This document shows, one piece after another, positions 8,354 through 58,189 of a stretch of 64,000 nucleotides of DNA. Every line of letters starts with the position of its first letter. Position 1 is the stretch's first letter. The position numbers and the translations under genes are program-made. The stretch spans positions 23,389,649-23,453,648 of the forward strand of contig NC_092398.1 of the NCBI RefSeq assembly GCF_030028105.1, in the 5' to 3' direction. The stretch comes from Mobula birostris. Taxonomy: Eukaryota. The notes under the pieces were generated by a model. That model worked only from the letters and a program-made list of their open reading frames with translations, was not told the DNA's origin and searched no databases.

Positions 8354-10133
8354 TTAATCCTCCTCCTCGGCCCTCTTGTCTAGATCTGCCGAATCGATGC
8401 CAACCTCCTTGTAGCCCTTCTCTAACGAGGCCTGTCCTCCCTCGCGTCTCTCCCTCCCTCCAGCCTCTCGCCCACATACCAGTGGACGAAGGCCCGCTTA
8501 GCGTACATCTTGTCGAACTCGATGTTCATGCGGGTCCAGGCCATGGCCACAGCGGTGGTGTCGTTCAGCATGCAGACGGCGCGCTGCACCTTGGCCAGGT
8601 CGCCGCCGGGCACCACAGTCGGGGGCTGGTAGTTGATGCCCACCTGTGGGAAGGAGGAAAGGAGAAGCATTCTTTTCAGGCACACAGAGGCGCAGCGGGT
8701 AGAGCCGCTGCCTCACGGCGCCAGAGGCACAGTTCGATTCCCATTTCCAAACTGGGCGTAAACGGTGAAACATAACAGGCCGGTATAGGCTTACTCTGGG
8801 GTGGTCCCAGGGTGAAAGGGGGTGTAGGTTATAGGTGCTTGGCAAAGGTGTTTTAAATGGCGGGGGGGGGGGGGGGTTGTTCGCGAAGAGAACTATCCTG
8901 CACTCGATGGCCGAAGCGTATACACCTCCAAAAATATTTGCGGACTTGGATGTTGGGAAATGTGGATAGATTTGGGTTCCCTACTTGAATTCCAAGAATT
9001 TAATGGTAAGGCTTCATGGTATAAAAAAGGTTAGGAACCCTTGGGATACAACATGTGTACAGAACGAGGCACCCCGTGGTACAGGATACGACGCTCCTAG
9101 AGACCTTCACCAATTCTCCGCCAAGCCCCGTGGGTTGGTCTCAAAGCCTCCATTCACCTTGAAACCGGCCGGACACCAGTCCACGAACTGGATGGAGCGC
9201 TTGGTCTTGATGGTGGCGATGGCAGCGTTCACGTCCTTGGGCACCACGTCTCCGCGGTACAGCATGCAGCACGCCATGTACTTGCCCTGGCGGGGGTCGC
9301 AATTCACCATCTGGTTGGCCGGCTCGAAGCAGGCGTTGGTGATCTCGGACACGGACAGCTGCTCGTGGTAAGCCTTCTCGGCCGAGATGAGGGGCGCGTA
9401 GGTCACCAGCGGGAAGTGGATGCGGGGGTAGGGCACCAGGTTGGTCTGGAACTCCAGAAGGTCCACGTTAAGGGCACCGTCGAAGCGCAGTCAAGCGGTG
9501 ACAGACGACACCACCTGACCCAGCAGGCGGTTGAGGTTGGTGTAGGTGGGGCGCTCAGTGTCCAGGTTCCGCCGGCAGATGTCGTAGATGGCCTCGTTGT
9601 CCACCATGAAGGCGCAGTCCGAGTGCTCGAGGGTGCAGTGGGTGACCAGCACCGAGTTGTAGGGCTCGACCACGGCGGTGGAGATCTGGGGCGCCGGGTA
9701 GACGGAGAATTCCAGCTTGGATTTCTTGCCGTAATCGACGGAGAGTCTCTCCATGAGGAGGGAGGTGAAGCCCGAGCCGGTGCCGCCCCCGAAGCTGTGG
9801 AAGATGAAGAACCCCTGCAGCCCCGTGCACTGGTCCGCCTGCGGGGAAGGAGGTGTCAGCGTGAGGTACTGTGCCGTTCTCCGTTCGGAATGGGAGAGGA
9901 TAGTGGGACAGGTGTGGATTGGGATCAACACTGGCCAATGGGAAACGTTTACAATTCGCTGACGGACACCTGCCCACAACCTACCAGCTTCCGAATGCGG
10001 TCCAGGACCAGGTCCACGATCTCCTTGCCGATGGAACAGTGGCCCCGCGCGTAGTTACTGGCCGCGTCCTCCTTGCCCGTAATGAGCTGCTCGGGGTGGA
10101 AGAGCTGCCGGTAGGTGCCGGTCCGGACCTCAT
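8354..10133 (-). pseudogene. TUBA: Alpha-tubulin pseudogene A (D/E subtype): exon 3 9985..10133, exon 4 9158..9838, exon 5 8354..8643; exons 1-2 absent
   Basis: In-frame TGA at 9491-9493 (codon S241). Deletions and frameshifts at about 8430-8460 disrupt [13 protein letters not shown]. Similarity to the paralogues stops in intron 2 at about 10230. Confidence 0.9.
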
Positions 10134-55216: not shown

Positions 55217-58189
55217 ATGGTACGTGTCCCAGGCTGAATTCACTAAGAGTTCTGGGGGCGCGTCCTCACTGGTGGTGTGGGGTTCAGGCGGTGACTCCAT
55301 TGGGTGAATCGGGTAGGCGGAAAGGAGGCACCATTCGGAGTAGGCGCTACGCGGGTCTACGTGGGGAAGGATTGCGGACGGATCCGCCCTTAACTAGTGG
55401 GAACCTCAAGGAAATTATGTTCATTTTTCCTCAAAAATATACCTTATTCAGAAATATTACAAAATAAAGTTATTTACTAAAATAAGATTATGTTCGTGGG
55501 ACACGTAGGTCTTCGCCCGATGTTCTTTCTGAATAACCGGCTGTCCTCCCCGTCTCCCTCTTTCCACAGCGTGAGTGTATCTCAGTCCACATCGGGCAGG
55601 CCGGCGTTCAGCTGGGTAACGCTTGCTGGGAGCTGTACTGTCTGGAGCACGGCATCCAACCGGATGGACAGATGCCGAGTGACAAGACCATTGGAGGGGG
55701 CGACGATTCCTTCAACACCTTCTTCAGCGAGACAGGGGCGGGCAAGCACGTCCCCCGGGCTGTCTTCATCGACCTGGAGCCCACCGTGGTCGGTAAGGGG
55801 GCGTAATAGTGCTGACATATAGAAACCTCAACGCGGTCTCCTCCCCTCTCAGTAAGACGCCCTGCGGATTGCAAAATAAACAAACAAATAAATAAATAAA
55901 TAAAGCGTGCTAATCCTCCCGTTCTGAAATCTTTTTCCCCCACACAGATGAGGTCCGGACCGGAACCTACCGGCAGCTCTTCCACCCCGAGCAGCTCATC
56001 ACGGGCAAGGAGGACGCGGCCAATAACTACGCGCGGGGCCACTGTTCCATCGGCAAGGAGATCGTGGACCTGGTCCTGGACCGCATCCGGAAGCTGGTAG
56101 GTTGTGGGCAGGTGTCCATCAGCGAATTGTAAACGTTTCCCATTGGCCAGTGTTGATCCCAATCCACACCTGTCCCACTAACCTCTCCCATTCCGAACAG
56201 AGAACGGCACAGTACCTCACGCTCACACCTCTTTCCCCGCAGGCGGACCAGTGCACGGGGCTGCAGGGGTTCCTCATCTTCCACAGCTTCGGGGGCGGCA
56301 CCGGCTCGGGCTTCACCTCCCTTCTCATGGAGCGACTCTCCGTCGATTACGGCAAGAAATCCAAGCTGGAATTCTCCGTCTACCCGGCGCCCCAGATCTC
56401 CACCGCCGTGGTCGAGCCCTACAACTCGGTGCTGGTCACCCACTGCACCCTCGAGCACTCGGACTGCTCCTTCATGTTGGACAACGAGGCCATCTACGAC
56501 ATCTGCCGGCGGAACCTGGACATTGAGCGCCCCACCTACACCAACCTCAACCGCCTGCTGGGTCAGGTGGTGTCGTCTGTCACCGCTTCGCTGCGCTTCG
56601 ACGGCGCCCTCAACGTGGACCTTCTGGAGTTCCAGACCAACCTGGTGCCCTACCCTCGCATCCACTTCCCGCTGGTGACCTACGCGCCCCTCATCTCGGC
56701 CGAGAAGGCTTATCACGAGCAGCTGTCTGTGGCTGAGATCACCAACGCCTGCTTCGAGCCGGCCAACCAGATGTTGAAGTGCGACCCCCGCCAGGGCAAG
56801 TACATGGCGTGCTGCATGTTGTACCGCGGAGACGTGGTGCCCAAGGACGTGAACGCTGCCATCGCCACCATCAAGACCAAGCGCTCCATCCAGTTCGTGG
56901 ACTGGTGTCCGACCGGCTTCAAGGTGAGTGGAGGCTTTGAGACCAGTCCGGAGAACCCTCGTTACGGGGCCCTCACCCAAACCGGTACTCTCACGAGACA
57001 TGGGACCCCCGCAAGGACCAGAGCTGTTTCTGCTCGAATCCGTAACCATTCCTGCCTAGCTCTGATAGACTAAGTAGATCTCTTAGGAGCGCCCCGTCTA
57101 TCTGAATTGCGTAGCCGCAGACTCCCCTCGTAAATCTATTTTTCTAGACAGTGGCCACTTTATTGCGAACCTTCTGATCTCTCAGCTTTCGGCTTCGAAA
57201 ACCCAGGTTACCAAAGTTTAAATTAAATTTATTTTCCAAGTACCAAATAAAGTGGCCACTGAGTGTACGTTCATGGTCTGCCGCTCACTAGATAATTTTT
57301 CTTTGTTGTTTGTTTTTCACGCCATTCTCTGTAAATTCTGGAGATATTGTGCGTGAAAGTCCTAGGAGATCAGCAATTTCTGAAATACCCAAACTAACTC
57401 GTCTTGCACTAACAATCATTCCACGGTCAAAGTCACTTAGATCACATTTCTTCCCCATTCTGATGTTTGGTCTGAACAACAACTGAACCTCATGGCCGCG
57501 TCTGCATGCTTTTTACGCATTGAGTTACTGCCACGTGATTGCCTGATTAGATATTTGCATTAATGGACAGGTGAACAGGTGTACCTAATAAAAAGCCATT
57601 GAGTATATATTCGGTTCATCGAGTTCATGCTAGCTCTTCTTTCGATCCTGTTTCCCTTCCATTTAACGATCTCTAAATCCGTCACCGCTCGCATGCCTTG
57701 CCCAGCGGCCAGTTAATTCTACATCACGTATTAGGGCGCAAAGCTAAGGAAGCAGGGGGCGCACGGTGGGGATCCAACATGGGCCTCTTGTCTCTGGTTG
57801 TATCCCCAGTGCTCCGCCTAGTGGCCGCCTGTGCCTCTCCTCTTGAAGCAGTTTCTCTGTGTAACCGAGCTGCATTCTGTCCTGTCCCACAGGTCGGCAT
57901 CAACTACCAGCCCCCGACCGTGGTGCCCGGCGGCGACCTGGCCAAGGTGCAGCGCGCCGTCTGCATGCTGAGCAACACCACTGCTGTGGCCATGGCCTGG
58001 ACCCGCATGAACATCAAGTTCGACAAGATGTACGCCAAGCGGGCCTTCGTCCACTGGTACGTGGGCGAGGGGCTGGAGGAGGGGGAGTTCCAGGACGCGC
58101 GGGAGGACATGGCCTCGCTGGAGAAGGACTACGAGGAGGTTGGCATCGATTCGGCAGATCTGGACAAGAGGGCCGAGGAGGAAGATTGA
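55217..58189 (+). CDS. TUBA: Alpha-tubulin E, 450 aa: join(55217..55219,55570..55792,55948..56096,56243..56923,57893..58189)
   Basis: atg|gtacgt first exon; same exon sizes as the other genes; open frame; protein appears identical to D. AATAAA at 58250 and 58293. Confidence 0.95.

Follow-up and report, generated by a model that had tools for sequence, protein, structure and literature searches.

We analysed a 64,000-nucleotide stretch of the 4.0-Gb genome of the ray Mobula birostris (C34:23,389,649-23,453,648, contig NC_092398.1; hereafter the window), in which four intact five-exon alpha-tubulin genes (B, C, D and E), one pseudogene (A) and one fragment lie next to the heme-synthesis gene ALAS2 (Table 1). 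Each intact gene has a reading frame of 1,353 nt encoding 450 amino acids without internal stops. Four GT-AG introns interrupt it, three of them following codons 1, 125 and 352 and one splitting codon 76; a poly(A) signal lies 72 bases past the stop of gene B. The terminal residues are EEEE in B and C and EEED in D and E, none of the four proteins having the terminal tyrosine. B differs from C at three residues and D from E at none, whereas the B/C and D/E subtypes differ at 25-27. The gene inventory, the two subtypes, the codon-352 intron and the missing tyrosine had all been proposed in an initial annotation of this DNA and are borne out by our gene models. The same annotation placed the nearest copy about 2.4 kb from ALAS2; the distance is correct (2,364 bases to about position 5990), but this copy is the dead A. 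The nearest intact gene is B, which starts 5.7 kb from ALAS2 and is oriented away from it, D and E being 36 kb and 49 kb off. As detailed below, these genes belong to a real, conserved and apparently undescribed elasmobranch alpha-tubulin class.

An elasmobranch class of alpha-tubulins

The MREC start, the GGGTGSG motif, K40 and E254, all with known roles in alpha-tubulins, confirm the identity of the proteins. They are 91-93% identical to ray TUBA1 over 438 residues, so that their earlier description as divergent holds only to a moderate degree. B and D have 24 changed positions in common relative to ray TUBA1, including Y108C, T109S, T190V, T193C, H309Q, E386M, A389T, H393L/I, L397K, M413L, S419Q, E420D and A427S, while R402, E414 and E417 are retained together with E254 and K40. 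Residues 385-432 form the outer helices H11-H12, and here the clade alters otherwise near-invariant residues (E386, H393, L397K, M413L, S419Q, E420D); positions 397, 413 and 420 showed no variation in the non-family rows covering them, among 26. From residue 385 to the end, the net charge is -9 to -11, compared with -16 in TUBA1. The predicted structures (pLDDT, predicted local distance difference test, 34 and 43) were too poor for mapping the changed residues. Helix 6 and loop 11 of kinesin touch alpha H12 at its acidic beginning (PMC4358365), and vertebrate alpha-tubulin isotypes differ chiefly in their tails (PMC4202323). The present family alters the body of the outer surface besides the tail, and these changes are kept across sharks and rays. 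With its gene-encoded detyrosinated state and modified H11-H12 helices, this alpha-tubulin is a natural case for testing the tubulin code, as its binding of motors and microtubule-associated proteins is open to measurement.

Of 367 collected proteins, 49 had one or more of five signature motifs. All 49 come from elasmobranchs (11 shark and 4 batoid species, 15 in all), and a terminal tyrosine is absent from every one, some of them being truncated models. The survey covered the best 120 of 4,753-5,932 matches per search; further members came from cluster look-ups, with a sample taken from those 90% clusters that contain thousands of proteins. Among the best 120 matches listed, the search with the C-terminal region gave close single-copy matches only in elasmobranchs, and that with region 100-200 added no carrier outside them. 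Bony-fish carriers numbered zero among the 367 proteins, and no chimaera sequence turned up among those collected.

In our reconstructions with vertebrate TUBA sets, the family formed its own elasmobranch clade, with supports of 100/99 in the 35-row tree and of 100 and 99 (Shimodaira-Hasegawa-like approximate likelihood ratio test, SH-aLRT) in the 76- and 90-row trees, the last built with a quick method. D clusters with the D-type rows of skates (98/91), so the two subtypes predate the skate-stingray split, and a third, faster subtype is found in sharks and sawfish. In thorny skate, at least 14 models are listed on one record of 52.9 Mb and more on two others of 66.1 and 17.7 Mb, that is, on at least three chromosomes. 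Another ray alpha-tubulin pairs with a row of the stingray Hemitrygon (support 99). A pairing of the family with a second divergent ray gene, C7e, was seen in the best 35-row tree (95/92); it may reflect long-branch attraction, as its support fell to 81 in the 90-row tree and C7e lacks the codon-352 intron.

The ratio of nonsynonymous to synonymous substitution rates is about 0.13 between the subtypes (B-D) and 0 for D-E, and therefore the family is under purifying selection. An inverted duplication of about 7 kb (94% identity) gave rise to D and E, which differ by 18 nucleotide changes, none of them altering an amino acid. Gene C is a mosaic that indicates gene conversion: its introns 2 and 3 are 95-97% like those of D/E, whereas introns 1 and 4 and the promoter resemble those of B. 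Further inverted duplicated blocks (88-94%) form a nest of inverted repeats around D/E (31448-36960, 44400-49059 and 60487-63560), amid which 129 N occur at 46829-46957.

We found no description of this clade in the literature searched, subscription papers being mostly outside reach. The accessible part of a eukaryote-wide tubulin survey (PMC4202323) never mentions sharks, and the main texts of the catshark genome paper and of a shark sex-chromosome paper make no mention of tubulin. Database names are automatic only, e.g., "tubulin alpha chain-like". The suggestion of a lineage-specific isotype family is upheld by an elasmobranch-only clade under purifying selection and likely transcribed.

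The family probably behaves as a tissue-restricted tubulin isotype, yet it does not fit the defining features of TUBA1, TUBA4A, TUBA8 or TUBA3. All eight ray genes on C38 and C7 lack the codon-352 intron and end in tyrosine, as expected of the TUBA1 class, and the family is the opposite on both counts. Mammalian TUBA3 and TUBA8 have this intron. TUBA3 thereby resembles the family, as it does in V115, I137, M317 and K40 (residues that also occur in invertebrate rows) and in gonadal use, which is likely in the family too. In contrast, TUBA3 ends in EEY, has canonical H11-H12 helices and carries none of the signature residues of the clade. The C18 gene of the ray, which is joined in the tree by a bird row (94/88) and, loosely, by TUBA8, has the codon-352 intron but ends in tyrosine. 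TUBA8 is without K40 (PMC12838686), which is retained in B-E. TUBA4A and avian alpha-5 also have a gene-encoded tail without terminal tyrosine. Nevertheless, the loss in our family was likely independent, because their H11-H12 helices are canonical, they branch elsewhere (a finch alpha-5 row pairs with ray C7b, 94/85) and the ray C7 cluster, taken as the TUBA4A counterpart, is without the codon-352 intron.

Approximately unbiased (AU) tests allowed a sister relationship with TUBA3 (p 0.24), TUBA8 alone (p 0.24) or TUBA1 (p 0.18), and a single clade of all codon-352-intron classes gave p 0.055. In contrast, an exclusive clade of the family with C18 alone was rejected (p 0.014), as was an exclusive clade of the family with C18 plus TUBA8 (p 0.004). 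The idea of an ohnologue lost in mammals is therefore only partly sustained: the family shares a paralogon with C18, the only other ray tubulin with a codon-352 intron, but mammalian TUBA3 is still a possible orthologue by the AU test.

Expression, promoters and cellular role

Transcription was assessed by word sharing, the fraction of 142 sampled words of gene B present in a run. Five RNA-like runs from four organisms had shares of 0.20-0.28 (X1 0.28, X2 0.23, X3 0.22, X4 0.22), and ten stretches with the nine other alpha-tubulin genes of the ray contained none of these words, so that the family is likely transcribed. The shares expected are 0.82 for B, 0.46 for C and 0.21 for D plus E. Three of the five runs and one zero-share run were compared with an eight-Tudor TDRD6-type exon, from a gene that we take to be germ-line specific. 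One contig of 7,984 nt spans the whole Tudor exon in X1, and in X3 a contig of 4,994 nt and additional pieces lie on it. These contigs stop exactly at the splice donor of the exon, and therefore X1 and X3 are spliced RNA from samples containing germ-line transcripts. If only D/E were expressed, simulation at the divergence of the Tudor exon gives shares of 0.13-0.20 in X1 and 0.01-0.09 in X3; both observed values are higher, which points to B/C transcripts in the two runs. We excluded as evidence X21 (same organism and study as X1, share 0.00), with pieces of 222 and 36 nt on the Tudor exon, and the lower shares of X6 (0.18), X7 (0.15), X8 (0.12) and marine runs (0.07-0.11). These runs and the uncovered Tudor parts of X2 fit both germ-cell and D/E-only expression, and holes between contigs prove nothing. 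In the bamboo-shark single-cell atlas, none of the 16 alpha-tubulin rows is an erythrocyte marker, whereas ALAS2 and a beta-tubulin are (PMC11372145, supplementary file 3).

The promoter of B/C bears no relation to that of D/E (local scores 23-24, versus 365 and 856), and the existence of two separate control regions in the cluster is firm. The D/E promoters combine WGATAA, a CACCC-type box, CCAAT and TATA, a set also present at ALAS2, while no GATA site occurs within 500 bases upstream of gene B. Per 500 bases, the background is 2.3% for X-box-like sites and 5.8% for the WGATAA and CACCC-type pair (685 windows); this pair is also found in the putative C18 promoter. The X-box-like sites of B/C and the GATA/CACCC signals of D/E each represent one homologous event, and both lines of evidence are weak.

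With about even confidence, we interpret the locus as a tandem elasmobranch alpha-tubulin isotype cluster used chiefly in gonadal germ cells, detyrosinated by gene and with a less acidic motor-binding surface. Germ-cell use is favoured because two of the three word-sharing runs checked have long spliced Tudor contigs and no alpha-tubulin is an erythrocyte marker in shark. The germ-cell product would come above all from B/C. Given the retained GTP motif, K40 and E254, the family would co-assemble with ordinary beta-tubulin; it would have no tyrosination cycle, hence CAP-Gly proteins, which read the terminal tyrosine, would not bind, and the H11-H12 changes would alter the grip of kinesins and microtubule-associated proteins. 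A likely use is in stable bundles (spermatid manchette or flagellum) or oocyte stores, testis and ovary not being separated by these data. The inverted duplication and gene conversion would raise and homogenise dose, and D/E, with their own promoter, may serve a second cell type.

Several observations weigh against this interpretation. X2 covers the Tudor exon with six pieces of at most 412 nt each, which match the ray genome exactly, and at 0.23 its share is compatible with D/E alone (0.21), allowing non-gonadal D/E expression. The runs carry no tissue label, and the subtype calls are word shares rather than alignments to tubulin genes. Elasmobranch gonads are enclosed by blood-forming epigonal tissue, and a gonad sample thus also contains blood cells. 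The bamboo-shark family models are partial, with two of three on scaffolds of 21-35 kb, so single-cell counts may miss them, and their LOC identifiers could not be matched. X-box-like sites are no commoner in the window than expected (6 against 8.1), the site having been fitted after the fact, and the surface positions of the changed residues are presumed ones.

Possible, although clearly short of even confidence, is a marginal-band tubulin, in which D/E or the whole family would be driven by GATA1/KLF1 in nucleated red cells or thrombocytes, sharing the erythroid domain of ALAS2; the missing tyrosine would then hard-wire the detyrosinated state of bird red cells. The D/E motif set equals that of ALAS2, and the shares of X2 and X4 match that expected of D/E only. 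The marginal-band alpha-tubulin of chicken is detyrosinated (PMC11791314), alpha4A and alpha8 matter in platelet marginal bands (PMC11285727), and dogfish marginal bands give four tubulin-region bands (PMC2112168). TUBB1, the blood-cell beta-tubulin, is a divergent isotype restricted to particular cell types and provides a model, but being a beta-tubulin it has an alpha partner, which in the chicken marginal band is ordinary alpha1 (PMC11791314). Moreover, the motif pair recurs in background windows and at C18, D and E count as one event, and the two copies closest to ALAS2 are pseudogene A and gene B with its GATA-free promoter. Skate copies on three records cannot all lie beside ALAS2, and the bamboo-shark erythrocyte markers include no alpha-tubulin (partial family models). 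Therefore, the proposal in the initial annotation that these tubulins share the regulatory domain of ALAS2 has no direct support. Of the two tissues it suggested, the germ line has the better evidence. A red-cell role is possible mainly for D/E, because their promoter is unrelated and has GATA and CACCC boxes; if they were erythroid, the marginal band would have an alpha-tubulin of its own in D/E.

We consider it rather unlikely that the family is an RFX-controlled axonemal tubulin of motile cilia generally (sperm tails and multiciliated epithelia), like zebrafish tuba7l, a marker of testis and of multiciliated cells in the kidney (PMC6503382, PMC5626406). The X-box-like sites of the B/C promoters and the retained K40 agree with it, but the motif evidence is weak, and none of the collected bony-fish proteins carried the signature. 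A short, less acidic tail would presumably also be unexpected for heavily glutamylated axonemes.

A joint reading, which we regard as unlikely, makes the locus the cartilaginous-fish orthologue of testis TUBA3 in an ancestral TFE3-ALAS2 block, with germ-cell B/C and GATA-driven red-cell D/E. TFE3 and ALAS2 are X-linked in mammals, and human TUBA3E-CCDC115-IMP4 would be a relic of a joint exit from the proto-X. If true, the family would have a hard-wired detyrosinated, de-acidified surface and D/E would be the first dedicated marginal-band alpha-tubulin. Human TUBA3E (2q21.1) lies within 268 kb of CCDC115/VMA22 and IMP4 (PMC13654587), both of which also adjoin the ray locus. Nevertheless, this echo may be chance, because cattle gene lists, in the accessible part of PMC8908906, name no TUBA near CCDC115/IMP4 and the other human neighbours of TUBA3E, SMPD4 and MZT2, are on other chromosomes in the ray.

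Finally, we find it very doubtful that the genes are drifting or simply ordinary, widely expressed copies of a general tubulin that lack any special role: birth-and-death turnover (two pseudogenes and one fragment), CpG-island promoters and the frequency of species-specific tubulin duplications (PMC4202323) agree with this, but the signature is kept in 15 species of sharks and batoids, D and E have no amino-acid changes despite 18 nucleotide changes, and the ray retains normal TUBA1 genes elsewhere.

The ALAS2 neighbourhood and other ray loci

The gene order in 344 kb around the window is a MiT/TFE gene, a broken tubulin copy, IMP4, CCDC115, ALAS2, the tubulin cluster and UFC1; we take the MiT/TFE gene to be TFE3 from the linkage of TFE3 to ALAS2. 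CCDC115 was found by genome search only (E 2.6e-4, a single match), single exons giving no recognition in PDB or Pfam scans, and UFC1 starts just past the right end of the window (L047:231-608, L048). The broken copy (C34:23,312,874-23,316,810; L029:3226-7160), the sixth near-full one, is of B type and carries a TAG in exon 4. It sits between TFE3 and IMP4, across ALAS2 from the cluster and 74 kb ahead of the window; its exon 1 was looked for and not found. Since the block reads TFE3-IMP4-CCDC115-ALAS2-tubulins-UFC1, the position of the tubulins beside ALAS2 is likely inherited synteny, an old duplication-era address rather than shared control.

An exon-4 search of the ray genome gave 15 alpha-tubulin matches on four chromosomes (six on C34, five on C7, three on C38 and one on C18), and the codon-352 intron is restricted to the C34 genes and the C18 gene, i.e., one of the nine other ray alpha-tubulins. 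Paralogues are shared in pairs, MiT on C18, C20 and C34, ALAS on C20 and C34, and PFKFB on C18 and C20, because of which the C34 and C18 tubulin loci likely descend from one locus via genome duplication, a duplication-era origin that also fits the intron they share. PFKFB1 would presumably be expected next to ALAS2; a genome search for 6PF2K found PFKFB on C18, C20 and C27 and none on C34, where it was lost or missed. The locus is a fourth alpha-tubulin locus of cartilaginous fish, relevant to how TUBA3 and TUBA8 originated.

Table 1. Features of the window (positions counted from its first base).
Feature	Position	Strand	Details
ALAS2 exon 2 (first coding exon, presequence; ATG 231-233)	62..243	-	Pfam Preseq_ALAS, E 1.8e-14; remaining exons in L034-L036
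ALAS2 non-coding exon 1, 5' end approximate	5881..5990	-	donor at 5881; hairpin like an iron-responsive element (IRE) at 5935-5951
Pseudogene A, exons 3-5 only	8354..10133	-	no exon 2; TGA at codon 241 (9491-9493); deletions and frameshift in exon 5
Intron 1 remnant of pseudogene A	10979..11186	-	B/C-like, 71-72% identity
RFX X-box-like site, B promoter	11580..11593	+	one mismatch to the consensus; weak
Gene B, intact	11721..14251	+	exons 11721-11723, 12219-12441, 12536-12684, 13072-13752, 13955-14251
Fragment, end of exon 4 and 3' part of exon 5	23818..24158	-	B/C-like
Gene C, intact	24536..26857	-	exons 26855-26857, 26156-26378, 25861-26009, 25035-25715, 24536-24832
RFX X-box-like site, C promoter	26983..26996	.	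homologous to the B site
Inverted segmental duplication behind D/E	36776..61120	.	39337-43963 vs 53780-58343; 36776-39337 vs 58555-61120; both 94%
Gene D, intact	39492..42499	-	exons 42497-42499, 41885-42107, 41585-41733, 40758-41438, 39492-39788
D promoter	42575..42759	-	WGATAA (-260), three CCAAT, CACCC-type box (-89), TATA (-81)
E promoter	54956..55140	+	same motif set as D
Gene E, intact, protein identical to D	55217..58189	+	exons 55217-55219, 55570-55792, 55948-56096, 56243-56923, 57893-58189

The heme gene is ALAS2, as initially named, and not ALAS1: the alignment of its last exon runs through to the C-terminus of human ALAS2, whereas the C20 paralogue stops short, and the MiT/TFE gene adjoins it. 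The hairpin of its exon 1 folds, with a C-bulge, a 5-bp stem and a CAGUGU loop, and was unmatched in Rfam at the gathering score and at E 5. We dropped it as proof of ALAS2 identity, as ray ALAS1 also carries one, a perfect hairpin of IRE type (with a CAGUGC loop, a 5-bp stem and a C-bulge; C20 about 14,774,385, L094:4380-4405) in an apparent CpG-rich first exon, 6.4 kb before the first coding exon. To our knowledge, mammals have an IRE in ALAS2 only, not in ALAS1, and iron control of housekeeping heme synthesis in elasmobranchs may follow.

The C18 alpha-tubulin (49.34-49.37 Mb; L082, L065, L045, L046) has five exons and a divergent 33-45 loop and lies downstream of a RABIF/Mss4 gene. C7e (C7 about 111.94-111.96 Mb; L044, L081) is a second divergent elasmobranch alpha-tubulin, 83% identical to B, with an altered 35-45 loop, a short tail and a clade support of 100; its cluster has 26 members, and the 15 listed are all from sharks and rays. 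Within the window, reverse-transcriptase-like frames, which we take to be of the LINE (long interspersed nuclear element) type, lie between the tubulin genes at 16716-17602 and 29392-30378.

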